Below are positions 1 through 14,543 of a stretch of 16,978 nt of DNA, piece after piece. The stretch lies in UHGV virus genome UHGV-0207004, one strand, 5' to 3'. This DNA comes from a virus. The stretch's first letter is position 1, and the number at the start of each line of letters is the position of its first letter. The notes beneath the pieces were generated by a model, which was not told the DNA's origin, did not search any database, and was given only the letters and a program-made list of their open reading frames with translations. The position numbers were made by a program, and so were the translations under genes.

Positions 1-765
1 ATGAGACTGACTAAAGACATTAAAAACCAGATTCTGGCTAACATCCTGCGCGACCACGAAATCGCTACCGAAGCTAAAAAAATCATGATGGACTCTCGCA
101 ACCTGGCGTATGACATTACGTTGCGCTGTATGCCGGTAGGCATTCATTCGTTCGCCGAGCTACGTGCTCACATTGAAGCAATCAACGATGACCCGTCGCA
201 GATGTACGGCGTCTGCGTATACACCAACAAGGCGACATATCGTTTCGACTCTGACAGCCCGTATGGTATCGGCAGCGTTTATGACGCCACTTTCGAAATC
301 AACGCAGGCGGAAACGTTCGCACCTTGTCATTGAGCGGTGACGGACTCCAATACCGGGTACATCGCGGATACTGGGAGTATAAATACATGAATAAGTTGT
401 CTCCCGATCTCAGCGATATCGTACCGGGGTATGAGGAAATTATGTTAGCGTCAGTGTGCGAATTGGACGATGATGGAAAAGCGCTGCCGATATATAAGCC
501 ACGCGGTCGTATAGACTACCCGGCGGACCATGATTTCTGTAAGCGCCCAGACCCAAACACACCCAACCGCCGCGAGTTGCGTGCTAAGTATGATGCGTTC
601 AAACTAACTGTTACCGGCGTGCTGGATATGCACAATACCGATAAGAAGCTGATCAAGGCGTGGCCTGAAGTTGAACAGTTCATTCCTTACCCGGACAAGC
701 CGAAGTCCACGGCGGTGGCGCTGGACGTGAAGACGTTAAACGAAATCTGCGGTATTCCGCGCTAA
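1..765 (+). CDS. hypothetical protein (254 aa), convergent with the packaging operon
   Basis: ATG at position 1 (true start could lie upstream of the window); uninterrupted ORF ending TAA 763-765, followed a few nt later by a terminator hairpin; no motif I can assign. Confidence 0.5.
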   Translation: MRLTKDIKNQILANILRDHEIATEAKKIMMDSRNLAYDITLRCMPVGIHSFAELRAHIEAINDDPSQMYGVCVYTNKATYRFDSDSPYGIGSVYDATFEINAGGNVRTLSLSGDGLQYRVHRGYWEYKYMNKLSPDLSDIVPGYEEIMLASVCELDDDGKALPIYKPRGRIDYPADHDFCKRPDPNTPNRRELRAKYDAFKLTVTGVLDMHNTDKKLIKAWPEVEQFIPYPDKPKSTAVALDVKTLNEICGIPR

Positions 766-771
766 CAAAAA

Positions 772-800
772 GGGGGCCATTACGGCCCCCGAATTATTTT
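772..800. terminator. bidirectional rho-independent terminator shared by the convergent genes
   Basis: GGGGGCC (772-778) / GGCCCCC (784-790) perfect 7-bp stem with 5-nt loop; A-run 766-771 gives a T-run for the minus-strand transcript, and ATTATTTT 793-800 follows on the plus strand. Confidence 0.6.
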
Positions 801-1010
801 CTGCAACTCCAGCACCTGCGCCCTTAGCTTAGCCCCGCATTCCATATTTTTAACATCAACCAGCAAGTCTTCGTCTGGATCCGCCGAGGCATTCTCAAAG
901 GTGCAAGGCGGTCTATAGACCGACTCTGTTGGCGGCGTCGATGGCACGTTGCTTGATCCGCACGCGCTCATCATCAAAACTGCAATTAGTACGGTCAGGA
1001 CGCGTAACAT
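780..1010 (-). CDS. o-spanin-like outer-membrane lipoprotein (76 aa)
   Basis: ATG 1010-1008 with AAGAGG 9 nt upstream; N-terminal hydrophobic signal ending in lipobox-like LMMSAC; short Pro-rich mature region (PSTPPTESVYRPPC); overlaps out of frame with the 3-prime part of the upstream TM/coiled-coil protein, as in Rz/Rz1-type spanin pairs. Confidence 0.5.
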   Translation of the reverse strand: MLRVLTVLIAVLMMSACGSSNVPSTPPTESVYRPPCTFENASADPDEDLLVDVKNMECGAKLRAQVLELQKIIRGP

Positions 1011-1221
1011 ATTTCACAACCTCTTTCGTGATGGTCCGGTATTCCACATCGCGGGCTTGTTCGGCCTGCACTGCCCCCTCGACAACCTTAGTTTGCTGCC
1101 GTTGGGCTTTCGCTTGCGCTTCCTGCGCCGCGCTCGCCACAACGCCAGCGCGGTATGAATCGCCCAGCCAGAAGCCAACCGCCAGGCCGATAACCAATCC
1201 AATCGCTGCATACTTAATCAC
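913..1221 (-). CDS. i-spanin-like (Rz-type) protein, ~102 aa
   Basis: Track ORF starts at TTG 1251 with no RBS; GTG 1221-1219 is preceded by a GGGGG Shine-Dalgarno at 8 nt and is the likelier start. N-terminal TM helix (IKYAAIGLVIGLAVGFWLG) followed by a charged Ala/Gln/Glu-rich helical periplasmic domain; embedded lipoprotein gene in another frame. Confidence 0.45.
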   Translation of the reverse strand: MIKYAAIGLVIGLAVGFWLGDSYRAGVVASAAQEAQAKAQRQQTKVVEGAVQAEQARDVEYRTITKEVVKYVTRPDRTNCSFDDERVRIKQRAIDAANRVGL

Positions 1222-2317
1222 GCCATAACCCCCGGTTTTTAAGCTGTGCAATAGTCATTAGTTCGCCTGTGTCGGTGAACATCTTCGGCACTTTCACGCC
1301 GCGCATAATCTGGTCCGCGCGCTGCACCCCGTATAATTCCTCCAGAATATGGCGCGGCTGGCGCTGCACCCATGAGAAGAAATCAGTCTGCGCGTCGACT
1401 TGCTCACTCAGCAATCGACCCGCGTCAGCCTTCAGTGCCGGACGCTTACCACTGGGCCAATCTTCCATACCTTTGACTTTCCACGTCTCAGTCGAACGGC
1501 AGCAATAATGCAGCTTGCCCGGGCCAGCGCCATACTGCGATCCAGCCACCACTTTTCCGCCGCGCTTCCCTTTGGTGTCGGGAGTGACGTCAACAGGATA
1601 AAACAGGCGATCGCGTAGCTGGCACATAGGGGAGGTATGAGTGTCCAATGTAGCCAACCATTGGCGACCTTCGAGAATATCGTCATTTGCTTTCACCATT
1701 AATTCGCGGGCGGTCGCCGCATAGTGGTTGACTGCGGACTTAACCACGCTTGAGATGGCCTGCGCACTACGACCGCCGAGCGCGCGCCTTACGTCCGCAA
1801 TTATTTCCATAGTCGGCTTGCCCTGGATGAAGCCCGCGCGCACCTGATTGCCGATCTGCGTCCTGGCCCACTCAGAGAGTGAGTCAGGCCACTGCATCAT
1901 CGTATTACCCTGGAACGGGTTTTTCATAGCCGTCGCTGCAATCTGCGCACCGGAAACAACGCCCACTACCTCGACAGCAGGCACGGCGACCGCTGGCTGG
2001 ATCGCTGCCGTTAGGGTATCGACAAGATAATCGGCCTCCGAGTCGGCAAACTCCTGAAGGCTTTCCGCCAGCGCCTTAAACTCGGTGCGCAGTTCCGTCT
2101 TAACGGTCCTGTCGAGTTGCGCCAACAGCGTGGTAAGCGCCTTGTTATTCATGGCCTTTTTGCCATCAAGTAACTCGGTCAGCTTCCCCAGTAAAGTGGG
2201 CCGGAACTTCTCCCACATAGTCAGCACCCTTCGCGCCTGGTCATTGCTCAGGCGCTGGGTGAAAATGTGACGGCGGATCATGCGATCCGCCAGATGTTGA
2301 TTAATCGTTCTCGCCAT
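1214..2317 (-). CDS. head morphogenesis / minor capsid protein, Mu F-like (SPP1 gp7 family)
   Basis: 367 aa; ATG 2317-2315; motif TLDTHTSPMCQLRDRLF resembles the conserved core of the Mu F-like domain; sits directly after the portal gene as in many siphoviruses. Confidence 0.7.
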   Translation of the reverse strand: MARTINQHLADRMIRRHIFTQRLSNDQARRVLTMWEKFRPTLLGKLTELLDGKKAMNNKALTTLLAQLDRTVKTELRTEFKALAESLQEFADSEADYLVDTLTAAIQPAVAVPAVEVVGVVSGAQIAATAMKNPFQGNTMMQWPDSLSEWARTQIGNQVRAGFIQGKPTMEIIADVRRALGGRSAQAISSVVKSAVNHYAATARELMVKANDDILEGRQWLATLDTHTSPMCQLRDRLFYPVDVTPDTKGKRGGKVVAGSQYGAGPGKLHYCCRSTETWKVKGMEDWPSGKRPALKADAGRLLSEQVDAQTDFFSWVQRQPRHILEELYGVQRADQIMRGVKVPKMFTDTGELMTIAQLKNRGLWRD

Positions 2318-3821
2318 TGTCCGCTACCTTGTCCGGGTCTTCTTCGGTAGATTCTACCGCATCCGGGGACATTTGAGGCAATGGATTCTGATTTCGCAAT
2401 TCGTCTTCTACCTGCTCGACAGTTTGCGAGTCATCAATGACGCCCTGCGCCATCATCCACTTGATGAAGTCAGAAAGTCGGACCGTACCAGTCTGCACAC
2501 CCGCCATCATTGCAGTCATAAGCTGCGCATCAACCGAGATTTCAGTGTAGAACTTGTTCAGCGTCACGCGCTGGTCCGCAGTGTCGCCCGTGAATAGCTG
2601 GACGATTTGCAGCGCCCGGTTGAAAGCCTTCTCAACGTTACCGGCAATCAGTGACAGGATACTGTTGTCAGTCTGCGCATCGTAGGCCGCTTCGGTTGCC
2701 GTCTTAGGTGCGGTCCCCTTCTCAACCAGGGCCGCGCCAAGTTTAGCCATTTGCAATTCTCGGCGCTCACACAGTGCGACAGACAAGTTGCGCTCCTCGG
2801 CCTGGAGCAGTTTAGCGTCCATGTTCTGCCCCAGGATCACGCCCTTAGTTGCGCCGAGAGCAATGCCGCCCTTCAGGTTCTTGTCCGCCCATGATTGAGT
2901 CAGGCCCGTAGCAACGAGGGTCGGCTGGCCCACAATGTGCGCAATCTCGGCGACGTCCGCTTCGGCGTTGTAGTGCTTAATGTTGATGGACGCAATATCC
3001 GCCAGCGGCGCGGCGTCAGGCGATGCGTTGTTGTCTACCGCGCCACACCAGCAAAATGGTAGTTGCGTAAGCGCATTACCGGCAGCATCCACCAATGGCA
3101 CAAGGTCGGTGCGGGTGAAGCCGCGCGGCAAGTCCATTTGCACCTCGGACGTGTCCGCGTTGTAAAACCAGCGGCGGGCGTGTGCCTTGCCGTCAATCAT
3201 GCGAAGCTCGGTCCATATGGTTACTTCGTGGTTTGCGAAGTCGTCCGGGTCTTCGGTGCTGATTTCGTCCGTTTCCTTCAGCACGATTAGCGTGTCAACA
3301 CCGTGGGTCTGCCGCCAGTTGATGATCTGTTCTGCCGTATACAGGCGGATAAGCGGACGGTGCGCAGCCATCTCGGCGGCGGTCTGCGGCACTACGTTAC
3401 CCAGTTCATCAAAGTGGGCCTGGCGATCGTAGTCCACCATAAAGCCTGCGCGGCCCGATTGCAGAACTTCCGACATAGCGCCGCGCAGGAGTTGCGGCAA
3501 TGGCATACCGCTGCCGTCTACGTCGTCAATCAGGTCAGCCATCGCCCCGGAAAGGTCCAGACTTACCGGTTTTGCAAAGGCAACGCCCAACAGCGCGTTA
3601 AGTGTGCGGGCGGTGGCGTTCAGGAATACAGCGCGTTGCTTATACGCCTTATACCGCGCCCGTGATTTCGGGTCAGTATTGTCGCCGCTGGCGGGATGTG
3701 GCAGGTACAAAGGGCCGCACGCCTTCACGGCGCGCTCCCCTGCTACACAATCCCGGATCATTTTCCACTCTGGCGCGATGCGCGCATAGAGTGGGTGCTG
3801 GTTGTCAACGTTAACGGTCAT
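2301..3821 (-). CDS. portal protein
   Basis: 506 aa; ATG 3821-3819 with AAGGAA SD; lies between the terminase large subunit and the Mu F-like gene; acidic C-terminal tail; call is based on size and synteny, no diagnostic motif seen. Confidence 0.65.
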   Translation of the reverse strand: MTVNVDNQHPLYARIAPEWKMIRDCVAGERAVKACGPLYLPHPASGDNTDPKSRARYKAYKQRAVFLNATARTLNALLGVAFAKPVSLDLSGAMADLIDDVDGSGMPLPQLLRGAMSEVLQSGRAGFMVDYDRQAHFDELGNVVPQTAAEMAAHRPLIRLYTAEQIINWRQTHGVDTLIVLKETDEISTEDPDDFANHEVTIWTELRMIDGKAHARRWFYNADTSEVQMDLPRGFTRTDLVPLVDAAGNALTQLPFCWCGAVDNNASPDAAPLADIASINIKHYNAEADVAEIAHIVGQPTLVATGLTQSWADKNLKGGIALGATKGVILGQNMDAKLLQAEERNLSVALCERRELQMAKLGAALVEKGTAPKTATEAAYDAQTDNSILSLIAGNVEKAFNRALQIVQLFTGDTADQRVTLNKFYTEISVDAQLMTAMMAGVQTGTVRLSDFIKWMMAQGVIDDSQTVEQVEDELRNQNPLPQMSPDAVESTEEDPDKVADNGEND

Positions 3822-3831
3822 GTTCGTTTCC

Positions 3832-5217
3832 TTAGTAGAAGTCTACAGTTGGAACAACGGCGATTGGACGAATCACTGGGAACAGGTGCGCAATTGGATA
3901 GCCCGCGGCATCGTTCATGTGGTCCACCCCAGCGGTTTTATCCGGCTCGCCTTTCTTCAGGTCGTAAACCTGCTGTTCCAGGCATTTCGCTAGTGTAGGG
4001 CATTTATCCAGGTTGACAAAATACTGGCGCACGCCCTTAGCGTTGCACATCATCGTATTCATCGCGATCAATCTGTCTTTCACCGGTGGGTTGACGCTGT
4101 CGTATTCCACCTCGAAGCCCGCGTCTTCCAGTTGCGCGATATCCGACGACGATGCGTTTACGGTCTTACGAGACTTGCCACTGCTGTCCGGGTAAACGAC
4201 AACACGACCGGCAGCGCAATGATCGGGGTAGCGCTCCTCGATCGCCTCAATCATAGCCGGGGTATCAAACAAGTCCACAAATTCATCCACTGCGTGAATC
4301 TCGTCGCGGAACTCCTTATTCTCGGTAGTGCGCTGCCGTCTGACGTACACAACCGCCGCCATTTTCGTGACGTTAAAGTCCATTCCGATAATCAGCGTGT
4401 CATCCGGCTGCACTTCCTCGGTGCTGGCGTTCTCCTCACGGTTAAACATCTTGTAGACTGCGCCAGACGTGAGGTTTACAAACAAGCCGTTAAGATATGC
4501 GTCAATCAGGTTTGCAGGGTACTGGCTTCGCAGCGTGTCGATAAAGTCTGCCGGTAAGTGGTGGTTGTCGGTGGTCTTCGCCCGGATCAACCGTTTTTGG
4601 TTATCCTTCTCCACTTCGAAAATCTGATACATTGCCCGGAAGCCTTCCGGCGTGGACACGATGACAAACTGGCGCACCAGGCCCGCACGCAGACGACCGA
4701 GCAATTTGTGATACGCCGCCATTGCAACGTCTTGCTTCGTGGTGTCGAACTCATCGGCAACAATCCACGCGGCGTTAACACCGATAAGACGCGTGTAGTT
4801 CTCCATTGACTCGCAGATTACGCGGGTCCATTTGCCTTTCACCAGCACGCTATAGATCTTGTCCTGCTTGTTGAACTTCCACCGGAAGCCTGCCTCGTCG
4901 AAAGCCTTCTCCAGCTCCGGGTACATGATTTTCACCAGGAGTGGGATAGTCGGCTCGGTCACAATGCCGTCATGACCTGGGTTCAGTGTCAGAAGCTGGA
5001 TGACCTTACGCGCCGCGACCCATGACTTGCCGCCGCCGAAGCCGGAACACAGGCCGAGGATTTTGGTCTTTGTGTCGCGCAGTAGTTCTACCTGGTGCGG
5101 AAGGCAATCAGGTTGATACAGGCGGACGGCCTGGGCAACGCGCGTTGGGCGCGGTGGTCGGTTGCGCTTTGCAATCGCGCGTTCAAGTGCGCGGTTTTCT
5201 GCCGCATAGTTACGCAT
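3832..5217 (-). CDS. terminase large subunit
   Basis: 461 aa; ATG 5217-5215 overlapping the TerS stop (TAATG); Walker A-like GLCSGFGGGKS, Walker B-like WIVADEFD, C-terminal nuclease-like region (IIGMDFN...); position upstream of portal. Confidence 0.8.
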   Translation of the reverse strand: MRNYAAENRALERAIAKRNRPPRPTRVAQAVRLYQPDCLPHQVELLRDTKTKILGLCSGFGGGKSWVAARKVIQLLTLNPGHDGIVTEPTIPLLVKIMYPELEKAFDEAGFRWKFNKQDKIYSVLVKGKWTRVICESMENYTRLIGVNAAWIVADEFDTTKQDVAMAAYHKLLGRLRAGLVRQFVIVSTPEGFRAMYQIFEVEKDNQKRLIRAKTTDNHHLPADFIDTLRSQYPANLIDAYLNGLFVNLTSGAVYKMFNREENASTEEVQPDDTLIIGMDFNVTKMAAVVYVRRQRTTENKEFRDEIHAVDEFVDLFDTPAMIEAIEERYPDHCAAGRVVVYPDSSGKSRKTVNASSSDIAQLEDAGFEVEYDSVNPPVKDRLIAMNTMMCNAKGVRQYFVNLDKCPTLAKCLEQQVYDLKKGEPDKTAGVDHMNDAAGYPIAHLFPVIRPIAVVPTVDFY

Positions 5218-5768
5218 TACTCACCCTGGCCTTTGCCGATAGGTTCGACAACAACGTCGCCGTTATCATCTTCGTCATCATCCAGCGGAGCATCGTCGCG
5301 GACGCCGTGATTGGCTTTAAGCAGGAACGCAGCGAAGCCCGCCGCGATGGTGATGCCGCCCGCTTCCATCAGGAAAGTTTTCTGCAGCTCCATTGCGTCA
5401 GCCATCGCCTCGGCGAACTCCTCATGTGCGCGCGCCCAGCGGTACAGGCAGGCAATGCCTACACCAATATCCGCAGCAAAGCGACCGAGAGTCGGCATCT
5501 TATGGCGGGGGATGACTTGCGCAGCGCCCTTGTCGGAGTAGTTGATCTGCCAGGCTACGGCATCGGCAAAATAGCGGCGAAGCTGGTCGCAATACACAGT
5601 GCGGTAGTCGGTCGGGCGTCCACATTTGCCGCCTTTACGACGCTTGCCGTATTCGATCTCAGGTCCAAGATTGGTATGTTCGGTTTGCTCGCCTGGTTTA
5701 CGGCGCGGGGTGACTGCCACTCGACCGTCCAGTTTGGCGCGACGGCCCTTAACTCTGATTTCTGCCAT
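5217..5768 (-). CDS. terminase small subunit (183 aa)
   Basis: Track ORF (start 5867) trimmed to ATG 5768-5766, which has an AAGGG SD; basic N-terminus, HTH-like segment (TLGRFAADIGVGIACLYRWARAHEEF), acidic C-terminal tail; stop overlaps the TerL start. Confidence 0.55.
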   Translation of the reverse strand: MAEIRVKGRRAKLDGRVAVTPRRKPGEQTEHTNLGPEIEYGKRRKGGKCGRPTDYRTVYCDQLRRYFADAVAWQINYSDKGAAQVIPRHKMPTLGRFAADIGVGIACLYRWARAHEEFAEAMADAMELQKTFLMEAGGITIAAGFAAFLLKANHGVRDDAPLDDDEDDNGDVVVEPIGKGQGE

Positions 5769-5838
5769 GATATAAGCCCTTTTATGCATATGCGCCGACC
5801 ATCGGCAACATAGGAGACGGCCCTGCCATCTAAGGTGG

Positions 5839-5867
5839 ATTATAACAGGCACAAAAAAGCCCACCAA
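5839..5867 (-). promoter_or_regulatory. candidate sigma70-type promoter for the packaging operon (extended -10)
   Basis: Minus-strand reading: TTGGTG (5867-5862), 17-bp spacer, TGT-TATAAT (-10 at 5844-5839); overlaps the preceding terminator hairpin. Confidence 0.3.
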
Positions 5868-5878
5868 ATCGGCGGGCT
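5851..5878 (-). terminator. rho-independent terminator ending the phosphoesterase module
   Basis: On the minus strand: AGCCCGCC / GGTGGGCT stem (one G-U pair), 5-nt loop, followed by TTTTTTG (complement of 5851-5857); immediately downstream of the stop at 5886. Confidence 0.5.
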
Positions 5879-5885
5879 GGGAGGC

Positions 5886-6098
5886 TTAAACGGCGCGACC
5901 GTAGTATCGGGTTAACATGCTTTCAACTTCGCTTATGGCACCCTCTGTGTAGCGTATTTGAGATAGTATCTCGATCCGCTCACTGATAGACATGCCTATT
6001 GCCGCTGCCGTTCGTTCGAATCGGCGCAAGCCTTCTAGTTGTTTGCGTAGCTCTTTCAGGCGGGTGGCCTGCGTGCTCATGAATACTTGTCTAATCAT
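5886..6098 (-). CDS. hypothetical 70-aa helical protein, translationally coupled to the phosphoesterase gene
   Basis: ATG 6098-6096 overlaps the upstream TGA (ATGA); predicted helical, charged; followed by a terminator. Confidence 0.5.
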   Translation of the reverse strand: MIRQVFMSTQATRLKELRKQLEGLRRFERTAAAIGMSISERIEILSQIRYTEGAISEVESMLTRYYGRAV

Positions 6099-7237
6099 CT
6101 CAACATCTCCGGGCTAATGGTTAGGCGCGCCACTTCGCCGTAGTTGGCGCTATAGGTGATGACGTTAGCACTGCGTCCGGACATCCAACCGCCGCGGCTT
6201 GCGTATGCGTCTTTCGCGGCGAGCGTCCGGTGCTGCTCAACAATCATGTTACGGGATTCTACAATCTTCTGGTGGTGCAAGTGACCAACATGCGCGTAAC
6301 TGTACTCGCTCTCGCCAAATGCTTTCCTGAACTTAGAAATCATTACCGACTCGATGGCGTCAAAGCGTGCTTTGTGACCGTGGTGGAAAAACAGCGTGGT
6401 CTTACCGTGCTGCACCATCTTGTATACGTCCGGTGACGTGTCAACATCGACGCGCGGCTCGTTCTCGTACAGGGTGTTGAACATCTCCGCCAGCCAAATC
6501 ATACCAGACTCGTCATGATTGCCCTGGACGATTAGCAGTTTTACTTTGTGGTGCTTTCGCAGCGCCAGGTCTACTACGTTGCGCACCATGCGAATCATGT
6601 AGCGGACCAACTTCTGGTATCGGGTATCCGCGTCCAGGATATGACCACTGGCTGGAGTGACTGCGTCAAGGCTGTCAAAGTGCGCCATATCGCCGAGGAT
6701 ATTGATGACGGCAGTTCCTGCGTCTGGTGCGCGGGCGAAGGCTTCGACAAACCAGCGGTAAAACAGATCTTCGGCGATTGCCATATCCCAGTCCTCGCCA
6801 GTCTCCTCGCCCCATGCCAGCATTCCCAAGTGGAAGTCTGACACTGTGTACAGGTTGAGTAGGTCAAGTGCCTGGATCGGGACGGGCGGGGCGCTAACTG
6901 GTGCTGCCGGTGTGATTTCGCTGTTCATACCCTCGACAACAGCGAGCATTGCTTCGAGTTGGCGCTCCTTGTCCTGCTCGGTGATAACCCATGACATGAC
7001 CTCTTCGCCATTGCCACGCACCAGGGCGGATACACGCTTGACGCCGAATCCATCGGCAACGCGCTTACGGATCACAGCATCGTTGCCGTGCCCAATGCCT
7101 TTCTTCGACAGCCTGGCTTTGCGCATATAGACATTTCGAAGAGCAATGCCATATTTCTTCGCAATCTCTTTCGATGTAGTGCCAGCTTGCAATTCAGCGA
7201 TCAATTGCTCGTCGGTGATTTTAGTTTGCGGATGCAT
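6095..7237 (-). CDS. N-terminal HTH domain fused to a calcineurin-like metallophosphoesterase (380 aa)
   Basis: ATG 7237-7235. N-terminal HTH-like segment (TSKEIAKKYGIALRNVYMRKARL). Metallophosphoesterase motif set seen in the translation: SDFHLG (D-x-H), ILGDMAHFD (GD), QGNHDE (GNHD/E), HHGH, GHLHH (GH-x-H). Confidence 0.75.
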   Translation of the reverse strand: MHPQTKITDEQLIAELQAGTTSKEIAKKYGIALRNVYMRKARLSKKGIGHGNDAVIRKRVADGFGVKRVSALVRGNGEEVMSWVITEQDKERQLEAMLAVVEGMNSEITPAAPVSAPPVPIQALDLLNLYTVSDFHLGMLAWGEETGEDWDMAIAEDLFYRWFVEAFARAPDAGTAVINILGDMAHFDSLDAVTPASGHILDADTRYQKLVRYMIRMVRNVVDLALRKHHKVKLLIVQGNHDESGMIWLAEMFNTLYENEPRVDVDTSPDVYKMVQHGKTTLFFHHGHKARFDAIESVMISKFRKAFGESEYSYAHVGHLHHQKIVESRNMIVEQHRTLAAKDAYASRGGWMSGRSANVITYSANYGEVARLTISPEMLR

Positions 7238-7286
7238 ATTAATTTAATTCCTGATTGAGAGGACCTAGGACAATATACCACGGTCG

Positions 7287-7367
7287 CTATAGTAATTCGC
7301 AAATAACCATACCGACGAATGCGGCGGCGGACCAGATCGCTAATACCCAAATATCATTGCGTGCCAT
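7287..7367 (-). CDS. putative 26-aa hydrophobic micro-protein (MARNDIWVLAIWSAAAFVGMVICELL)
   Basis: ATG 7367-7365 preceded by GGAAGGAG at ~9 nt; single predicted TM helix; sits between the TTGGTTGCA promoter region and the phosphoesterase gene; below the ORF-track size cut-off, so hand-translated. Confidence 0.25.
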   Translation of the reverse strand: MARNDIWVLAIWSAAAFVGMVICELL

Positions 7368-7390
7368 AGTGTGTTACTCCTTCCCGTTGA

Positions 7391-7428
7391 TTGGTTGCAG
7401 TATGGCCTCTATGTTGGTTGCAAGTCAA
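7391..7428 (-). promoter_or_regulatory. promoter/operator region with two TTGGTTGCA 9-mers
   Basis: Perfect TTGGTTGCA at 7391-7399 and 7414-7422; on the minus strand TTGACT (-35, complement of 7423-7428) and a weak CATACT -10 at 18-bp spacing; directly after a terminator and before the micro-ORF and phosphoesterase gene. Confidence 0.4.
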
Positions 7429-7430
7429 GC

Positions 7431-7457
7431 AATAAAAAGCCCGGATAATTCCGGGCT
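7431..7457 (-). terminator. rho-independent terminator ending the lysis unit
   Basis: AGCCCGGA (7438-7445) / TCCGGGCT (7450-7457) 8-bp stem, 4-nt loop; on the minus strand followed by TTTTATT (complement of 7431-7437); 7 nt after the stop at 7464. Confidence 0.6.
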
Positions 7458-7463
7458 TCATGT

Positions 7464-7634
7464 TTACGCCTCCGGTTCTGCCGGTGGTTCCGGTGCCGCT
7501 GGTTCTGGCAGCTTCGCATCAAAAACACCAGCATGACTGATAGTGTCGGCGATAATGGCGCGTGCGCCAGGGTCTTCGGTTTTAGCCAGCGCGGCGAGCG
7601 CGTCGGCGTTATGATCAAGAATGCTTTTTAACAT
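7464..7634 (-). CDS. small protein with Pro-Glu-rich C-terminal tail (56 aa)
   Basis: Track ORF trimmed to ATG 7634-7632, preceded by GAGGAG at 7 nt; sequence MLKSILDHNADALAALAKTEDPGARAIIADTISHAGVFDAKLPEPAAPEPPAEPEA; no TM segment or lipobox, so not a spanin. Confidence 0.5.
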   Translation of the reverse strand: MLKSILDHNADALAALAKTEDPGARAIIADTISHAGVFDAKLPEPAAPEPPAEPEA

Positions 7635-7650
7635 ACTGTGTCTCCTCGTA

Positions 7651-8142
7651 TTACACTGCGTTACGTCCGATTTTCTCGGCAACGTCCCACTGCTTACCAT
7701 CGAATAGTGCCTGCCGACCGATTGCACGGCGGACAAGCCCCTTGAGCACTACCCCACCCTGCTTGCGGAATTGCGGCAGTGTAGCACGTACCTTCGCCCA
7801 GTCACCCAGGCGGACCGCATCATCGAAGTCACCGGCAATGTTGTCCGGCGTGATCGGGCCAGGACCGGTATTGATAACCAGATCCACCAGCGCGTCGAAT
7901 TGCGCCTGATTAATGCTCGGGTGTGCGTACTTGTTCACACAACTTTCGGCATACTCCACATCTCGCTTGAGTAGCTCCAGCGCTTCCGCACGGGTAATGC
8001 TCCGCGGCGGATTTGTGCCGGTGTGTCCATAGCCCCAGGTGTACAGGCCGCGGGCCTGCTCTTTCTTAGTCGCGAAATACGGCACTGGGCTGAATTGCTC
8101 CCATGCTGCCGTGAATCTTAGACCGTTGTCACTGAATCGCAT
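7651..8142 (-). CDS. endolysin, GH24 (T4/P22-lysozyme-like) muramidase
   Basis: 163 aa; ATG 8142-8140 with GGGG SD; from memory of P22 gp19-type lysozymes the translation shares SxNG...GxGHTG...NQxQFDAL...FNxG-type blocks; position after holin-like genes. Confidence 0.8.
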   Translation of the reverse strand: MRFSDNGLRFTAAWEQFSPVPYFATKKEQARGLYTWGYGHTGTNPPRSITRAEALELLKRDVEYAESCVNKYAHPSINQAQFDALVDLVINTGPGPITPDNIAGDFDDAVRLGDWAKVRATLPQFRKQGGVVLKGLVRRAIGRQALFDGKQWDVAEKIGRNAV

Positions 8143-8374
8143 GTTTTACCCCATTCAAAACAGCATTACGCAGTGTGCGCAATGCAAACAGCCAGATTAA
8201 CGCGGTCCAGGTGGCGTCAGATACGTCTCCCGTTTGCAACAGACCGACAATACAGGTCATTGCCGTTAGCAGATACAACACCCGACCGAAGAAGCCATCC
8301 TGAACGGATGGCGCGTACACGTTAAACAGGGACGATGCCCCGATAATCACAAACAACAGGACGGTGATAATCAT
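8129..8374 (-). CDS. holin/antiholin-like small membrane protein (81 aa)
   Basis: Track ORF (171 aa) trimmed to ATG 8374-8372, which overlaps the upstream TGA (ATGA) and has a GGGGGG SD; three hydrophobic segments; 3-prime end overlaps the endolysin start. Confidence 0.5.
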   Translation of the reverse strand: MIITVLLFVIIGASSLFNVYAPSVQDGFFGRVLYLLTAMTCIVGLLQTGDVSDATWTALIWLFALRTLRNAVLNGVKHAIQ

Positions 8375-8661
8375 TTTGCGCCCCCCGGAAGGCGGAACGA
8401 CGCAATCGTCTCCCTGATCCGGGCGGCGATTGGCATCCAGAAGATGGCTGTTACGAAGCCCAATCCGGCGACAGTTCGCTCGCCAGATAGGCCAGCCCAC
8501 TCGGCAATCGCTGGCGCACCGAAAATGGCACACAAGAAGCCGACCACGATGTATAACACGAAGTTTAATGGCCCTTTCGTGGCCTCGCCATGAATGCGAG
8601 CGCCAACGAATCCGCCTGCAAGGCACGCTAGGGCGAATAACCATTCGTTCAGCTTTTCCAT
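8371..8661 (-). CDS. holin-like membrane protein (96 aa, three predicted TM segments)
   Basis: ATG 8661-8659; hydrophobic segments WLFALACLAGGFVGARI, FVLYIVVGFLCAIFGAPAIA, GLGFVTAIFWMPIAA; charged C-terminus; first gene of the holin-holin-endolysin block. Confidence 0.55.
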   Translation of the reverse strand: MEKLNEWLFALACLAGGFVGARIHGEATKGPLNFVLYIVVGFLCAIFGAPAIAEWAGLSGERTVAGLGFVTAIFWMPIAARIRETIASFRLPGGAK

Positions 8662-8695
8662 AAAAAAGTCCCAGTAAGTTTTAGCTCACTGGGAC
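8662..8695 (-). terminator. hairpin plus T6 immediately abutting the holin start codon (tR-prime-like terminator or translational control element)
   Basis: GTCCCAGT (8668-8675) / ACTGGGAC (8688-8695) perfect 8-bp stem, 12-nt loop; on the minus strand followed by TTTTTT (complement of 8662-8667) and then directly ATG 8661. Confidence 0.5.
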
Positions 8696-8713
8696 TATAT
8701 CACGCTTGCATAG

Positions 8714-9001
8714 TTAATCGAAAATGGACCACTTACCGACGCCTTTCCATTCCCACCCTTCCGATCGGACGGCCTCGAACATACGGCCCCCGATCATATC
8801 CCGATACCACAGCCACCACATGCGCAGCTTGGTTGGGTGTTCGGTAATGCCGCGGCGCTTGTATATCTGGAACGTCATCCGGGTAATGCTGGCAGCTTCC
8901 ACGGCAGGCCATACCAGGAATACCCAAATAACTAACAACACTGCCGCGATAAGGCATAGTCCGCAGGCCAGCCCAAACCAATATATCATTTCGTGTAACA
9001 T
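8714..9001 (-). CDS. small membrane protein (95 aa), function unknown
   Basis: ATG 9001-8999 with AAGGGG SD at 8 nt; N-terminal TM helix, Trp-rich C-terminal half; caveat: two other frames are also open here, so coding status is uncertain. Confidence 0.4.
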   Translation of the reverse strand: MLHEMIYWFGLACGLCLIAAVLLVIWVFLVWPAVEAASITRMTFQIYKRRGITEHPTKLRMWWLWYRDMIGGRMFEAVRSEGWEWKGVGKWSIFD

Positions 9002-9122
9002 CGTATTGCCCCTTCTGGTTGTCCGATGTGGCGCGCCCAGGCACGCGCCACGAAGTAATTGCGGAACACTCGCCCGCCTATCTCAAAGCGGTTGTGCATG
9101 AGTATATCGCGGATGGTCGCAC

Positions 9123-9695
9123 TCATTTCAGAATCACCGAGCGCGGGTCGATGACGGTCATGTTGCCGTCCGGTTCGACACGGATGAATCCAACGCCATA
9201 CTCTTTAGCGTGGCGCTGTGCATTCGTCACGGCGTCAAAGCGATTGATGATTTCACGCGTTGCCTGGCGGATCGGCTCCATCACTTTGCTCGCGTCGTAG
9301 GCTGCATAGGCGGTCTGTGACTTGCGGAACTCAACGCGCTCATGTGGCTGGCGGATGCGCAGGCAGTATTTACGCCCCACTCGCTCGTAGTTGACCAGCC
9401 CGAAGTAAGCCACGCTCTTAACCATGTTGCCGGTACCGCCCTCCTTGCGGGTCTGCATACGAATGCAATAAAAACCAACATTCTCCACAATCCACAGCTG
9501 CCCGTCGCGAATATCCCGCAGCACATCGCCGCGCTCAATATCGTGGGTGAGTACGTCGAAGTTTTCCGACAGCTTGTCTTTCTTCGCCCACCACACCCGA
9601 CTACCTGCCGCGTTTTGCAAGCGGACGTAGGAATCCAGGGTCTGGATCGGCTTCAGGATGCATCCATCCCATTTACGGCGGAATAGTAATTTCAT
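9123..9695 (-). CDS. hypothetical protein (190 aa)
   Basis: ATG 9695-9693 overlapping the upstream TGA (ATGA); no motif recognised; last gene before the late leader and holin genes. Confidence 0.55.
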   Translation of the reverse strand: MKLLFRRKWDGCILKPIQTLDSYVRLQNAAGSRVWWAKKDKLSENFDVLTHDIERGDVLRDIRDGQLWIVENVGFYCIRMQTRKEGGTGNMVKSVAYFGLVNYERVGRKYCLRIRQPHERVEFRKSQTAYAAYDASKVMEPIRQATREIINRFDAVTNAQRHAKEYGVGFIRVEPDGNMTVIDPRSVILK

Positions 9696-9961
9696 TTGCT
9701 CAGTCTCCAGTGTTTGCCTGCCCGCTCAATGGCAGGCTTTCGGCGTAATGTAATACGGATCCCCATTGGTTGCAAGGAAGTCCGCACCCTGAAATCATGT
9801 TGTGCTGCGAACTGGTGCAGGTAGCGAGTCTGCGTAAGTGGCTTCGCATCATCGCGATAGCTCCAGTACACAGAATCGCCCTCAATCGCATTCTGCGCCC
9901 ATATTCGTATGCAATGCAGGGGAATGCCCCATGAAAGCTGTTTAGCTCGCCTCCGGCTCAT
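9692..9961 (-). CDS. hypothetical basic protein (89 aa)
   Basis: ATG 9961-9959 with AAGGGG SD; Arg/Trp-rich; translationally coupled to the downstream gene; contains an internal TTGGTTGCA at 9766-9774. Confidence 0.45.
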   Translation of the reverse strand: MSRRRAKQLSWGIPLHCIRIWAQNAIEGDSVYWSYRDDAKPLTQTRYLHQFAAQHDFRVRTSLQPMGIRITLRRKPAIERAGKHWRLSK

Positions 9962-9970
9962 TTTGGCCCC

Positions 9971-10276
9971 TTATTTCGCAAGCTGGGCGAATAGTTCGCG
10001 CTGGGCTTTAATCCGGGCGACGTTTGTCACTGCCGTCTCCCCGATCCCGAAGCGATAAGCCAGGCGCTCACGGGAGAATGCCATCGCATATTCGCAGATT
10101 GCCACGCGCAGCGGCTCCAGTTCGTCCAGGCTGGCAAACATATCGTCGAACGCGTTCATGATCGCCTGCTGGGTCAGGATGACTACCTCGCGCGCTTCGT
10201 CTGCGTTGCCGTTTAGTGCCTTCGCTTCGTCCAGCTTTGCCACGGCCAGGGTGTAATTCCAGATTAGTGCTTTCAT
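9971..10276 (-). CDS. hypothetical protein with C-terminal HTH-like segment (101 aa); candidate small regulator
   Basis: ATG 10276-10274 overlapping the upstream TGA; C-terminal RLAYRFGIGETAVTNVARIKAQRE resembles a helix-turn-helix. Confidence 0.5.
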   Translation of the reverse strand: MKALIWNYTLAVAKLDEAKALNGNADEAREVVILTQQAIMNAFDDMFASLDELEPLRVAICEYAMAFSRERLAYRFGIGETAVTNVARIKAQRELFAQLAK

Positions 10277-10470
10277 CGTTCAGTCCTCTTCGTGATGGTT
10301 ACGCTATCCAGGAATTGCAGCAAGGCCTCTTGCGCCTTTACACGCAATCCGGCGTAGTGGCGCGATTTCTTAATGTCGCCGACCATGTACGCTGCGCGTG
10401 CTTGCAAATCAGCTTTGTTCTCGGCCTCAATCAGTTCCAGCAGTTCGTCTACCAGGTCTTCGTGGTCCAT
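10273..10470 (-). CDS. hypothetical acidic helical protein (65 aa)
   Basis: ATG 10470-10468 with GAGGA SD at ~10 nt; first gene downstream of the promoter and repeat region. Confidence 0.5.
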   Translation of the reverse strand: MDHEDLVDELLELIEAENKADLQARAAYMVGDIKKSRHYAGLRVKAQEALLQFLDSVTITKRTER

Positions 10471-10485
10471 TGTTCAATCCTCATG

Positions 10486-10531
10486 TTGGTGTGCAACCAA
10501 TATATCAGTGTGCCCGGCCGGATGCAACCAA
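10486..10531 (-). promoter_or_regulatory. sigma70-like promoter overlapped by two TTGGTTGCA sites
   Basis: Minus-strand reading: -35 TTGCAT (complement of 10522-10527), 17-bp spacer, -10 TATATT (complement of 10499-10504); 9-mer copies at 10523-10531 and 10492-10500 (complement); the 21-mer TATATTGGTTGCACACCAACA is shared with 16579-16599. Confidence 0.45.
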
Positions 10532-10680
10532 TATTAATCACGCGCATGAAAAAGTTGATCGCTATCTGCTGCAACTGCAAACTGCATTTTTCACTCTCCA
10601 TTCTGCAACTCGCATTGGTTGCCGAGTTCATCGACGACCGCAATTTGCATCATGTTGCCGTGGATTATGCAATCCTGGAT

Positions 10681-11000
10681 TTTATGCAGTCTCAGACGAG
10701 GGGGGTGCCAGACCCCCCGTCTAGTCTGAAAGACTGGGGTGCTGTCCCGCTGTCCCGATCGGCTAAAACCCGCGGCAGCACTGGCGGGGACGGGGTGCTG
10801 TCCCGCTTTGTCCCGCCTCAATTTTGTCCCGCTTTTGTCCCGTTTGTTTTATGCATGAAAACTGAATAGGTATGCACTTTTCAGAGGGGTGCCAGATCGG
10901 GACGTCCCGCCTGTCCCGCTTTTAGTTTATGCAATAAAAGTAAATAGGTATGCAGTTTTTGAGGGGCGGGACAAAACGGGACGTCCCGCTTGTCCCGCTT
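10681..11000. repeat. ORF-free iteron array: three imperfect ~75-bp tandem modules carrying GTCCCGC heptamers (~10 direct, 3-4 inverted copies)
   Basis: GTCCCG(C) at 10744, 10752, 10800, 10810, 10826, 10837, 10904, 10913, 10983, 10992 (pairs 8-11 bp apart); inverted CGGGAC at 10898, 10967, 10977; modules start TTTATGCA at 10681, 10849, 10926 and share GAGGGG(TGCCAGA) and AATAGGTATGCA blocks; no ORF of 60 aa or more on either strand. Confidence 0.7.
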
Positions 11001-11002
11001 CA

Positions 11003-11679
11003 TTATGCGGGGTTTTGTTGCGCCATTTCATCGAGCGCGATTCGTTCCATTAGCTTGATATCTTTAAACGCGCGCTGCTCGTTTTCGATACCGTGCATCT
11101 TAAATAACCATTCCAGCACGCCATAGTCGATGCCGTATGCGCCACCGAATCCGGTGCGCCATTGCGTAGAGCAATCTGTGAAGACTGCGACTACCTTCGC
11201 GTTGTCGGGCCATAGCGCAACAGGCGGGCAAACGTCTTCAGGTGCCGCGCCCCATAAACTCGCGGCTAAGTCCTCTGATGGTGGCGGCGGACCGTAAAAT
11301 CGCCTCGCCGCCTCAATTAGTTTTTTTCACGCAGTCCCATCAGTTCGAGATAGTACGAGGTGTGGAACACGCCAAACGCGCGCGGATAGTTTACCACCAG
11401 GCGGCGAACGTTCTCCGCGTTAAATTCGTCCGGCAGGTTCCAGCCTTCAGCGACGTGCATGATGGCCTCAACCATAACGTTAAAGCCATCCGGGTCGTTG
11501 TCGTCATATTCTGATAGCTTGCGTTCCGTTTCCTGCATGGTCTGCGAAAATTCGTCAATCGGGCGGTGGCGGACGGTAAACGTCATCTTGCCTGGTTCGT
11601 TCTCACCAGGGCGCGGGATCTCAATCGGCAGCTTAAAGGTCGGCTTAGGGTCAAGTGTGAAGAGTGGTGCTTTAGCCAT
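11003..11679 (-). CDS. tail assembly chaperone GT fusion (predicted -1 programmed frameshift product)
   Basis: Slippery run GAAAAAAAC (complement of 11320-11328) at the last codons of G; the -1 frame has a stop 2 codons upstream of the slip site, then stays open for ~105 codons to TAA 11005-11003 with no plausible start codon or SD of its own. Confidence 0.45.
11317..11679 (-). CDS. tail assembly chaperone G (120 aa)
   Basis: Track ORF (TTG 11694) trimmed to ATG 11679-11677 with GGAG SD; small acidic protein directly downstream of the major tail protein gene and ending in a slippery A-run. Confidence 0.55.
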   Translation of the reverse strand: MAKAPLFTLDPKPTFKLPIEIPRPGENEPGKMTFTVRHRPIDEFSQTMQETERKLSEYDDNDPDGFNVMVEAIMHVAEGWNLPDEFNAENVRRLVVNYPRAFGVFHTSYYLELMGLREKN

Positions 11680-11692
11680 TGTAATATTCTCC

Positions 11693-11718
11693 AATAAAAA
11701 AGGGGCCGTGCTGGCCCC
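11693..11718 (-). terminator. rho-independent terminator after the major tail protein gene
   Basis: GGGGCC (11702-11707) / GGCCCC (11713-11718) stem, 5-nt loop; on the minus strand followed by TTTTTTATT (complement of 11693-11701). Confidence 0.6.
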
Positions 11719-11748
11719 ATATTATCACTCGCTATTTAAGCGACCAAA

Positions 11749-12474
11749 TCAGGCGAGTGCCTCGACCAGGTCCTTACGGTAGATGACCATATCAGACTGC
11801 ATGGTCAGAGTGGATTGTACCGTTTCCACGTTGTTTACTTCAGCGGACGGAATCTTCTGGAAAGATACCTTAGCCGGGTAAATACGAATTTCACCTTTGC
11901 CGCTTGCTGCCGCTGGGTTAGTGAACTTAATCACAGTGGTTTTCTGTGTGTCGTCCAGGTCTTCCAGGATTGGGCGGATCGGGTCTTCTTCGTCGTGGGT
12001 GAAGGTGTAAGTCTGGACCAACGGGTTTTTCGTGGTGTTCAGACTGATCGCGGTGTTCACCTGCAACGGCTGGAAGGTAGTCGTCTGCTGGTCACCACCA
12101 GAAACAGCAACGTTAGTGATAAACGGGAAGTCGATAAAGTTAGCCACCTTAACCACTTCGCCAGGTGTACCCGCTGCAAAAGCCCCCGCCGGATATTTGG
12201 TCACATCCGAGGTGTCGAAGCGCGCGAGCGTGACGTCGTTGGTAGCCACTTTACCCACGATGAACGCGCGGTTCTGCGCGCGGACCCACGGAGATTTAGT
12301 GAACATTACCACGTCGCCAACTTTCAGACCGTGAGACGCCGCGCAGGTGATTACGCAACCAGTGGTAAGGTTGGAGATCGACGCGGTGGCGTTGGAAGCT
12401 GCCGTAACAGCGATGCCGCTGCCCAGTACGGACCCAATCTGGACGCTGGACCCGTTAGGAAGTTGATAACCCAT
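11749..12474 (-). CDS. major tail (tube) protein
   Basis: 241 aa; ATG 12474-12472 with AGGAG SD; Gly/Ser/Thr/Val-rich beta-type composition; followed by a terminator and a chaperone gene with a frameshift, the canonical siphovirus arrangement. Confidence 0.55.
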   Translation of the reverse strand: MGYQLPNGSSVQIGSVLGSGIAVTAASNATASISNLTTGCVITCAASHGLKVGDVVMFTKSPWVRAQNRAFIVGKVATNDVTLARFDTSDVTKYPAGAFAAGTPGEVVKVANFIDFPFITNVAVSGGDQQTTTFQPLQVNTAISLNTTKNPLVQTYTFTHDEEDPIRPILEDLDDTQKTTVIKFTNPAAASGKGEIRIYPAKVSFQKIPSAEVNNVETVQSTLTMQSDMVIYRKDLVEALA

Positions 12475-12534
12475 AATGAAGCTCCTGTTTAGATATACGG
12501 ATTAATGATACAGCACGCGCAGAATTGCGCCAAA

Positions 12535-12957
12535 TCAGGCGCAACAGCTATACATGATTGATACCACGATGCGGGCGCGGTCAACATCCTCGACCACAGA
12601 ACTGGTATATGGCGCGTCCTGAAGCTGGAAAGCCGCGCCATCGATCTTGACGCCATGCCATTTGTCAGACGTCGCGATGGCGTCCGCCAGTTCGCTCGCG
12701 TACTGTGTGCCCGTGCCCGCAGGGAACACAACGGCAACCTGGTAAACGCCTGCATAGATCCGGCCTTTCTGCTGAAGGCCAGCAAACTGGGTCGGGGCCG
12801 GTAGCAGGTACGGCTCCAGGTAGACGCCATTACCGTTTGCGTGGTCGCCCTTCACGTTCTCCCAGTTAACCTGGATCGGACGCTGGTTAGTGCTCAGGCT
12901 AACCGCCAATTCTTCTACTACGCTGTTAAGCGCCTTGCGGATTAGAGTATTGCTCAT
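12535..12957 (-). CDS. head-tail joining / tail terminator-like protein (140 aa)
   Basis: ATG 12957-12955 overlapping the upstream stop; call is from position between head-tail connector genes and the major tail protein only. Confidence 0.4.
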   Translation of the reverse strand: MSNTLIRKALNSVVEELAVSLSTNQRPIQVNWENVKGDHANGNGVYLEPYLLPAPTQFAGLQQKGRIYAGVYQVAVVFPAGTGTQYASELADAIATSDKWHGVKIDGAAFQLQDAPYTSSVVEDVDRARIVVSIMYSCCA

Positions 12958-13550: not shown

Positions 13551-13551
13551 A

Positions 13552-13905
13552 TTAGCCCCTTAGCTGTAATTGAAACAGCATGGTAGTTCCCGCCGGTTGC
13601 AGTGGATTTGGATTGATAACACGGTAGTCCGTGCTATTCAGGTTGACCAGATCGCCTACCTGCACTTGCTCCGATGCCTGGCATAAGAACTTAACGTCAC
13701 CGGCAATGATACGAGTCCCGTCGATCTCGCTGGGCTTGTACTCCTCGCGAAGACCGATGACATCAAACGACGTTGGCGGGATAACCACTTCTTCGCCGCC
13801 TACGCGGTCAACAGACCCCGGACGCGTCACCTTAACGGTCATGCCGTATTTTTTAATCAGCGGATTTACTTTCCGCTTCAAGCCTGCGTAGTTAAAGCCC
13901 GCCAT
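13552..13905 (-). CDS. head closure / head-tail adaptor-like protein (117 aa)
   Basis: Track start GTG 13914 abuts the SD; ATG 13905-13903 has GGAGGG at ~9 nt and is preferred; synteny. Confidence 0.45.
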   Translation of the reverse strand: MAGFNYAGLKRKVNPLIKKYGMTVKVTRPGSVDRVGGEEVVIPPTSFDVIGLREEYKPSEIDGTRIIAGDVKFLCQASEQVQVGDLVNLNSTDYRVINPNPLQPAGTTMLFQLQLRG

Positions 13906-13906
13906 T

Positions 13907-14002: not shown

Positions 14003-14003
14003 A

Positions 14004-14504: not shown

Positions 14505-14517
14505 TTTATTTGCTCCT

Positions 14518-14543
14518 ATAAAAAAGGCGGGCTTATGCCCGCC
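14518..14543 (-). terminator. rho-independent terminator after the major capsid gene
   Basis: GGCGGGC (14526-14532) / GCCCGCC (14537-14543) 7-bp stem, 4-nt loop; on the minus strand followed by TTTTTT (complement of 14520-14525). Confidence 0.6.

Follow-up and report, generated by a model that had tools for sequence, protein, structure and literature searches.

The window analyzed here, a 16,978-nucleotide stretch of viral DNA (UHGV virus genome UHGV-0207004), contains a gene whose product joins an N-terminal helix-turn-helix (HTH) to a metallophosphoesterase (MPE) domain. We find that the MPE gene, which existing records already annotate, belongs to the conserved core of Dhillonvirus and is not accessory cargo. 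Sequence comparison shows an intact predicted two-metal phosphoesterase site fused to the HTH. Judging from sequence, structural models and analogy, we lean toward a reading that we place slightly on the probable side, in which the gene encodes a DNA-tethered MPE nuclease that would act on replication/recombination intermediates or on host DNA. The features of the locus are collected in Table 1.

Table 1. Positions of the MPE gene, its parts and the surrounding signals in the window
Feature	Position	Strand	Basis or remark
HTH–MPE gene	6095–7237	minus	ATG open reading frame (ORF), 380 aa plus stop; ORF list and translation
N-terminal HTH, about residues 8–45	7103–7216	minus	model helices 9–17, 22–29, 33–45
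β-hairpin (residues 64–88) and helix (90–106), between HTH and catalytic domain	6920–7060	minus	AlphaFold2 model
MPE catalytic domain, residues 123–380	6098–6871	minus	six motifs plus family-specific loop VTPxSGHxLDxDxRY
70-aa two-helix hairpin protein (phrog_20931), variable element	5886–6098	minus	ATG overlaps MPE stop as ATGA
Intrinsic terminator ending lysis unit, upstream of MPE unit	7436–7459	minus	scan: 10-pair stem and T run
Distal sigma-70-like promoter TTGACT-18-CATACT	7399–7428	minus	promoter scan; overlaps two TGCAACCAA repeats (7414–7422, 7391–7399)
Micro-ORF, 26-aa hydrophobic peptide MARNDIWVLAIWSAAAFVGMVICELL	7287–7367	minus	sequence reading; AAGGAG ribosome-binding site
Proximal extended −10 promoter TGgTATATT	7272–7280	minus	invariant alignment block; ∼35 nt upstream of MPE start codon
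Intrinsic terminator ending MPE unit	5858–5878	minus	terminator scan
Extended −10 promoter TGTTATAAT of terS/packaging unit	5839–5847	minus	pattern scan; conserved in JLBYU37

The catalytic motifs were checked in two alignments, one of 31 close relatives and one of 47 distant representatives that are 32–48% identical to the window protein. The motif residues are D134/H136 (SDFHLG), G182–D183 with H186 (GDMAH), N240–H241–D242 (GNHD), H286/H288 (HHGH) and G318–H319 with H321 (GHLH). Residues D134, H136, G182–D183, N240–H241, H286, G318 and H321 are invariant in both alignments, and H186, D242, H288 and H319 are kept in at least 90% of the distant homologues. Because the motif residues are invariant or nearly so, the motifs have not been misread, an error that a preliminary description of this DNA had itself allowed for, and the complete motif set that it had reported in the 380-residue ORF is borne out.

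The AlphaFold2 model of the protein (predicted local distance difference test (pLDDT) 78, predicted template modeling score (pTM) 0.72) consists of three short helices (residues 9–45), the hairpin/helix segment and an α/β MPE domain that runs from residue 123 to the C-terminus and has the β-sandwich fold of the calcineurin-like superfamily. By its ordered motifs and its modeled fold, the protein belongs to the calcineurin-like metallophosphoesterase superfamily. The domain scores below the gathering cut-offs of both Pfam models tried, Metallophos (23.0 bits against 27, E = 9e-5) and Metallophos_2 (20.5 against 21.5, E = 7e-4), and is, as far as sequence scores can tell, too divergent for the general models.

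As modeled and by sequence match, the N-terminal domain is a simple tri-helical HTH. Family members match several HTH models in Pfam, including Sigma70_r4_2 (best E = 1.5e-9), GerE, HTH_8, HTH_23 and related entries, and a PDB profile search with the family profile gave as best matches GerE and RhlR, which are LuxR-type, over the HTH only. The N-terminal HTH of the preliminary description is thus supported by the model and by both kinds of profile match. The HTH diverges faster than the catalytic domain, with a mean pairwise identity of 23% versus 40%, as does the hairpin/helix region (residues 64–106).

To which metallophosphoesterases the protein is closest is indicated mainly by its fold. 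Fold comparison gave figures of 13.9 for the small phosphodiesterase MJ0936, 13.6 for Mre11, 13.5 each for SbcD and the PolD DP1 proofreading exonuclease, 12–13 for polymerase B-subunits and 8.9 or less for PPP-type protein phosphatases. The top Foldseek match in the PDB was Methanocaldococcus jannaschii Mre11 bound to DNA. These comparisons show that the modeled fold ranks with the Mre11, SbcD and PolD DP1 nucleases and well above the protein phosphatases. The spelling of the motifs, DxHLG, GDxxH, GNHD and GHxH, is one that we take to be that of Mre11/SbcD. A direct sequence search of the PDB returned zero matches, NCBIfam gave nothing usable, and the PDB profile search found nothing significant for the catalytic domain, only faint MPE matches at the level of single motifs. 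Among these were weak local matches over motifs I–II to Thermotoga maritima Mre11/SbcD (E = 0.56 or worse) and matches of the PdeM type limited to motif III (TIGR04123, E = 0.09; PDB 6nvo, E = 1.5). The profile and structure searches that had been proposed to place the domain therefore give a split answer: it is Mre11/SbcD-like by fold, profile membership of Mre11/SbcD was not found, and neither the GDxVDRG/GNHE motifs nor the closest fold match of a λ PPase-like PPP enzyme is present.

Comparison with the known nucleases of this superfamily brings out what is particular to the window protein. In the Mre11/SbcD family, which includes T4 gp47, the arrangement is different in that the window protein carries its extra domains N-terminally, in the form of the HTH. 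The PolD small subunit DP1, a 3′–5′ proofreading exonuclease, and the eukaryotic polymerase B-subunits are 8–13% identical to the window protein; DP1 has an OB fold where an HTH and hairpin module is found here, and no polymerase catalytic subunit is encoded nearby. The bacterial MPE/PdeM enzyme, a ligase- and Lhr-associated, Mn-dependent single-stranded DNA endonuclease, is likewise a stand-alone MPE nuclease encoded next to helicase/ligase genes, and one member of the window protein's family adjoins a phage DNA ligase gene, but PdeM is only ∼210 aa long and has no HTH. From its sequence features and model, the protein plausibly works like an Mre11-class nuclease but outside that family.

The closest relatives define the protein as a member of phrog_704 ('DNA repair exonuclease'), with a full-length match (E = 5.8e-161) of residues 5–379 to positions 2–389 of the 390-position profile, the same HTH and MPE architecture and no material difference. 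Members such as Escherichia phage JLBYU37 gp45, HK578, mckay_49 and Citrobacter phage Stevie gp37 appear in GenBank as calcineurin-like phosphoesterase, DNA repair exonuclease or DNA polymerase II small subunit, and the family name itself is, to judge by the sequences, a homology-based guess. Distribution was counted by tblastn across 50,697 phage records. The MPE protein is present at ≥90% identity in 155 of them, compared with 157 for the large terminase (terL) of the window, and homologues of any degree occur in 2,051. Identity to deposited Dhillonvirus proteins is 95–98% (97.9% for the JLBYU37 protein). Homologues that are 72–82% identical belong mostly to Salmonella phages and Pantoea phage AH01 (GenBank: Guernseyvirinae), those of T1-like Drexlerviridae are 43–47% identical, and those of Vibrio, Campylobacter and other phages are lower. 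An exhaustive search of 1.84 billion representatives of 50% identity clusters recovered 4,668 relatives at E ≤ 1e-3, with 1,130 at E ≤ 1e-30. The gene has been reported as persistent in 508/522 Drexlerviridae (PMC13164509).

At the Dhillonvirus loci inspected, the lysis genes are on one side of the gene and terS is on the other; the GeorgBuechner record has the lysis genes upstream and stops shortly after the MPE gene. Essentially every Dhillonvirus carries the gene, as do many other virulent siphoviruses. The preliminary description had proposed accessory (moron) cargo and had named universal conservation at this position, as a core function, as the outcome that would overturn the proposal; the distribution data give just that outcome, with the gene in 155 of about 157 Dhillonvirus records and in the same slot where inspected. 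Presence and absence among syntenic relatives tell the same story, because the MPE gene is not patchy and only the 70-aa ORF downstream of it is. As a find the gene is ordinary, being annotated in >150 near-identical genomes and belonging to a catalogued phage family. As an enzyme it is a known unknown, among the most widespread uncharacterized phage enzymes (2,051 records, ∼4,700 clusters at 50% identity), and almost every phage in the groups used therapeutically, and in the BASEL collection, carries it.

The neighbors of the MPE gene in relatives are mostly DNA-metabolism genes. An Escherichia coli prophage has the order O-like replication initiator, homing HNH endonuclease, HTH–MPE, DnaB-like helicase. 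Citrobacter phage Stevie carries the MPE gene last in an operon with a helicase, VRR-NUC and Dam methylase, followed by a terminator and the lysis genes. The gene directly upstream encodes SSB in Vibrio phage K198 and a DNA helicase in Asaia; in Pantoea, the MPE gene has a replication helicase on its upstream side and a DNA methyltransferase on the other. In Campylobacter phage F374, a phrog_704 member that lacks the HTH follows a Holliday-junction resolvase and DNA ligase. The closer alignment, used as query in a locus search, returned eight bacterial loci. In Xanthomonadaceae prophages the MPE gene is 2–3 kb upstream of terL, and in Drexlerviridae and Guernseyvirinae it is far from terS.

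In the mechanism that we favor, the HTH and hairpin module would hold the enzyme so that its two-metal active site is positioned on DNA, the HTH replacing the Rad50/SbcC partner that Mre11/SbcD require. The MPE domain would then hydrolyze DNA phosphodiester bonds in phage DNA metabolism. Its target would be the host chromosome or else replication/recombination intermediates and ends prior to packaging.

Phage T5 offers the nearest functional parallel. Its A1 protein is a predicted metallophosphatase reported to resemble double-strand-break repair and proofreading nucleases and to be the only factor both required and sufficient for breakdown of host DNA; its partner is A2, a separate DNA-binding protein, and A1 itself still lacks demonstrated in vitro nuclease activity (bioRxiv 10.64898/2026.04.02.716235). 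Both systems pair an MPE-fold protein with a DNA-binding function, which is a separate protein in T5 but fused here. A small ORF with two transmembrane segments lies between A2 and A1, and the 26-aa hydrophobic micro-ORF lies just upstream of the MPE gene in the window. The differences are considerable. A1 (phrog_1745) is 556 aa long with a large unrelated N-terminal region, and its gene belongs to the pre-early class and is bound up with two-step DNA transfer, a feature that Dhillonvirus-type phages lack. Nor is the window protein a member of phrog_1745: T5 A1 matches phrog_1745 alone (E up to 1), and this family is absent from the five PHROG matches of the window protein. Comparison of T5 A1 by hidden Markov model was not significant. 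We take T5 A1/A2 to be analogous in function and possibly remotely related, and the parallel offers a testable hypothesis of host DNA degradation or replication-intermediate processing. One T5 A1 homologue, at 1288–2922 of the locus from Vibrio phage 249E41-1 and 42% identical over residues 77–556, is annotated as a 'putative homeodomain-like protein'; its annotation hints that some A1-family proteins may also have an HTH-type N-terminus.

Several observations weigh against a DNA-tethered nuclease. Profile comparison by hhalign gave a probability of only 3% against E.coli SbcD. The capping domain of Mre11/SbcD was not found, the model ending with the MPE core at residue 380, and no gene for a Rad50/SbcC-type ATPase is present in the window or beside the homologues inspected. 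T5 A1 is only weakly similar: against a profile built from an alignment of seven A1 homologues, the MPE family gave an alignment of 127 columns that starts at motif III and reaches the C-terminus (E = 5e-4, probability 30%), and a pairwise Smith–Waterman comparison with T5 A1 was not significant (z = 1.5). The profile similarity, which comprises the segments NHDxxxSxWL, HGH, GHxH and W...ITY, is nevertheless stronger than that to SbcD (30% versus 3%). The rapid divergence of the HTH relative to the catalytic domain fits sequence-specific site recognition better than general end processing. The nuclease idea also leaves unexplained a second recurring neighborhood, the lysis/packaging block, in which the gene is found in many phage groups, although this placement may reflect only the boundary between replication and late genes. 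Finally, a search of the accessible literature on Dhillonvirus, Drexlerviridae, escape mutants, transcriptomics and degradation of host DNA by T1 turned up no functional study of any family member; the earlier label of an uncharacterized module holds in this functional sense, whereas the module has been catalogued and annotated.

A more specific version of the nuclease reading can be formulated by analogy. The HTH–MPE protein might be a single-chain functional equivalent of T5 A1 plus A2, the hitherto unassigned nuclease by which T1-like, Dhillonvirus and Jersey-like siphoviruses would destroy the host chromosome or remodel their own replication intermediates; its fast-evolving HTH would direct it to specific DNA, and the coupled ORF slot at the 3′ end of the gene would be a hotspot for swapped modulators or counter-defense genes. 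We put this forward as a tentative proposal that is more probably wrong than right in this full form.

The first alternative to a nuclease is a transcription factor that would bind phage promoters through its sigma-region-4/LuxR-like HTH and activate or autoregulate the late lysis/packaging units, with the MPE domain as sensor or accessory enzyme. Several families do place the gene immediately upstream of or within the lysis/packaging block, the position of λ Q, and the Sigma70_r4_2 matches of some members reach E = 1.5e-9. The distal MPE promoter has two copies of the 9-mer TGCAACCAA, which marks two further intergenic regions, and the HTH evolves fast, like specificity determinants. However, the catalytic residues are conserved across the family (47 distant homologues aligned; >4,000 clusters), which argues for an enzyme rather than a degenerate sensor. 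The HTH-less member beside a DNA ligase gene and the E.coli prophage gene, which sits between replication initiator and DnaB and not at a late-gene switch, also speak against this role. No link was found between the 9-mer and the HTH of the MPE protein, and other regulators are probably encoded outside the window. We consider a transcription factor unlikely.

A site-specific initiator nuclease is quite unlikely as well. Here the HTH would recognize a defined phage site, such as origin iterons or a packaging/processing site, and the MPE domain would nick it to start replication or mature the DNA. The fast divergence of the HTH and the variety of HTH models matched across the family are in keeping with such a role, as is the position of the gene, which adjoins the O-like initiator and DnaB in the prophage, adjoins terS in the window, and is close to terL in Xanthomonadaceae prophages; the genome also has an iteron cluster. 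Yet the prophage already encodes an O-like initiator, the large terminase has a nuclease domain of its own (as found by the domain search of the window), and the gene is distant from terS in Drexlerviridae and Guernseyvirinae. A relationship between the HTH and terS, which would have suggested binding to a pac site, was sought and no similarity was seen, which also counts against an initiator nuclease. To our knowledge, no replication initiator uses the MPE fold.

The preliminary description had also raised an anti-defense role. In this reading, a phosphodiesterase of anti-defense or nucleotide metabolism would destroy cyclic or linear nucleotide signals or other small phosphodiesters. The gene adjoins a variable slot of small ORFs, and in one relative an Acb2/Tad1-like gene lies 1.4 kb downstream. 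But such a function would have no use for a fused DNA-binding domain, the gene belongs to the core and is not patchily distributed, its neighbors are DNA replication/repair genes, and the MPE protein has no match in PADLOC-DB at E up to 0.01. The phage enzymes known to degrade such signals use other folds, a 2H phosphoesterase in Acb1 and a metallo-β-lactamase fold in Apyc1. Nothing was found in support of the anti-defense role itself, and we think it improbable.

A λ-PPase-like Ser/Thr/Tyr protein phosphatase that reprograms host proteins would come from the same superfamily, and some GenBank records do say 'calcineurin-like phosphatase', but motif II reads GDMAHFD instead of the PPP signature GDxVDRG and the PPP-specific motifs are absent, making this highly improbable. 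The least credible account is moron-type cargo that a lambdoid phage acquired between its lysis and packaging modules. In its favor are an own promoter with flanking terminators and a position relative to other modules that varies between phage families. Against it are the distribution of the gene in Dhillonvirus and, as reported, in Drexlerviridae (PMC13164509), the virulent Dhillonvirus nature of the phage, and the occurrence of the same promoter type on every other unit of the minus strand.

The window DNA is ∼90% identical to Dhillonvirus genomes, for example vB_EcoS_WF5505, mckay and Shigella phage 1b, and the GenBank taxonomy of its matches is Caudoviricetes; Dhillonvirus. By sequence identity, the source is a Dhillonvirus, a virulent HK578-like E.coli siphovirus, and the label 'lambdoid' used earlier does not apply. 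Placement of the MPE gene between lysis and packaging genes was correct. The minus strand holds nearly all of the genes, which in order of transcription are those for scaffold, major head protein, connector proteins and major tail protein, then small ORFs, two holins (8129–8661), endolysin (7651–8142), the MPE protein, the 70-aa protein, terS, terL (3832–5217), portal and a head-morphogenesis protein.

Collinearity between the window and complete Dhillonvirus genomes is broken. Positions 7795–18961 of the Shigella phage 1b locus correspond to window bases 1–10855 and positions 1501–7794 to bases 10682–16978, so that bases 10682–10855 (174 bases) match both ends of the Shigella phage 1b segment. 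SECphi18 has a 174-nt direct repeat, 80% identical, at 2965–3138 and 19405–19578, with a spacing of 16,440 nt. Because of this double match and the SECphi18 repeat, the 16,978-base window is, as its sequence reads, one repeat-to-repeat Dhillonvirus sub-segment that has been circularized across a 174-bp iteron-containing direct repeat and rotated. The circular unit could be an assembly artifact or a genuine recombination product. Genes for tape measure, tail tip and replication are missing from the window. An iteron cluster at 10743–10998 holds 12 copies of TGTCCCGC within 256 bp, seven exact and five with one mismatch, and all exact copies in the window fall inside it. In complete genomes, the TGTCCCGC iteron block is repeated, upstream of the helicase–primase gene and beside the tape-measure gene. 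The cluster is a candidate origin or other protein-binding array.

The ORF downstream of the MPE gene behaves differently from the gene itself. Its product is modeled as a two-helix hairpin (pLDDT 89), and the ATGA overlap confirms the translational coupling to a helical protein that had been described. It occurs in 75 phage records only and is precisely absent from JLBYU37, GeorgBuechner and SECphi18, where a terminator directly follows the MPE stop codon; the patchy presence expected of accessory cargo is thus seen for the 70-aa ORF alone and not for the MPE gene. Pantoea phage AH01 and four distant metagenomic phages likewise have an ORF that overlaps the end of the MPE gene by 4 nt. These five coupled ORFs encode 97, 163, 71, 172 and 161 aa, one of them spanin-like, and show no similarity to one another or to the 70-aa protein. 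A conserved downstream partner forming a two-gene module with the MPE protein is ruled out, the coupled ORFs of the six phages compared not being homologous. The occurrence of unrelated ORFs with the same 4-nt overlap in different phages therefore points to a variable slot at the 3′ end of the MPE gene, filled by translationally coupled ORFs. The 70-aa ORF is interchangeable cargo, outside the core function of the MPE protein, and the locus is worth screening for modulators or counter-defense functions. The 70-aa protein has no match in PADLOC-DB at E up to 0.01. The relative with an Acb2/Tad1-like gene, 1.4 kb downstream of MPE, was noted above. We also considered whether the 70-aa ORF or another ORF adjoining the MPE gene is Ksap1, the Dhillonvirus trigger of KpAvs2 that is said to adjoin a 'phosphatase' gene. 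SECphi18 Ksap1 is located at 33278–33502, distant from the MPE locus, and the key residues of Ksap1 do not fit the 70-aa protein.

The arrangement of signals around the gene shows, as far as they can be read from the DNA, that MPE forms its own transcription unit, composed of promoters, the micro-ORF, the MPE gene, an optional coupled small ORF and a terminator. The scan gives flanking terminators at 7459–7436 and 5878–5858, in agreement with those described before. The upstream terminator is conserved in mckay and Shigella phage 1b, and JLBYU37 keeps the downstream terminator, directly after the MPE stop codon. The distal promoter is conserved in relatives but deleted in JLBYU37. Its two TGCAACCAA copies are, on the opposite strand, the TTGGTTGCA repeat that had been noticed in the promoter. 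The micro-ORF ahead of the gene was likewise described correctly. The lysis terminator precedes it and the MPE gene follows, and its ribosome-binding site is strong. Phages mckay and GeorgBuechner retain it with changes that are mostly synonymous; it is extended in Shigella phage 1b and deleted in JLBYU37. To judge from its sequence, it probably encodes a real small membrane peptide. JLBYU37, which lost both the distal promoter and the micro-ORF, kept the proximal extended −10. The distal promoter of the preliminary description is therefore present, but the promoter common to every relative is the proximal one (7280–7272).

The finding of an own promoter and terminator, moron-like as it is, is offset by the same promoter type on every unit of the minus strand. 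Four intergenic extended −10 elements (TGnTATAnT) without a good −35, all on the minus strand, were located at 5839–5847, 7272–7280, 8694–8702 and 10499–10507, one upstream of each of the terS, MPE, holin and small-gene units. The pattern has only two in-gene matches and zero on the plus strand. This arrangement suggests that the four units share one predicted promoter class.

The 9-mer TGCAACCAA occurs seven times in the window versus 0.24 expected, at 7391–7422 (minus), 9766–9774 (minus), 10492–10531 (plus) and 16570–16591 (minus). Most copies form intergenic pairs: one pair sits at the distal MPE promoter, another falls in the divergent region at ∼10.5 kb, and a third precedes the scaffold gene. 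The 9-mer is frequent, too, in mckay, Shigella phage 1b and the terminal repeats of SECphi18. It probably serves a phage regulator as operator. From sequence, the HTH of the MPE protein can be matched neither to the TGCAACCAA repeats nor to the TGTCCCGC iterons. The T1-like relative Citrobacter phage Stevie carries a different promoter-associated repeat. Positions 1658–12895 of the Stevie locus contain at least seven copies of the 22-bp repeat AAATAGCACTTTTTGTTAAAAC, each followed ∼17–20 nt later by a −10-like hexamer, and this conserved promoter element differs from the Dhillonvirus one.

Two further genes of the window lie apart from the MPE locus. The sole sizeable plus-strand gene (1–765) encodes a nucleotide-modification-associated domain 5 (Nmad5) protein (Pfam E = 9.7e-54); Dhillonvirus Nmad5 has been reported to trigger the Tmn defense system (PMC11846954). 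Downstream of the head-morphogenesis gene, a 76-aa minus-strand ORF (780–1010) has a lipoprotein signal (LIAVLMMSAC), and the coding sequence overlapping its position in Shigella phage 1b is annotated as 'Rz-like spanin'. The putative spanin thus appears to be set apart from the holin–endolysin cassette by the MPE and packaging genes.

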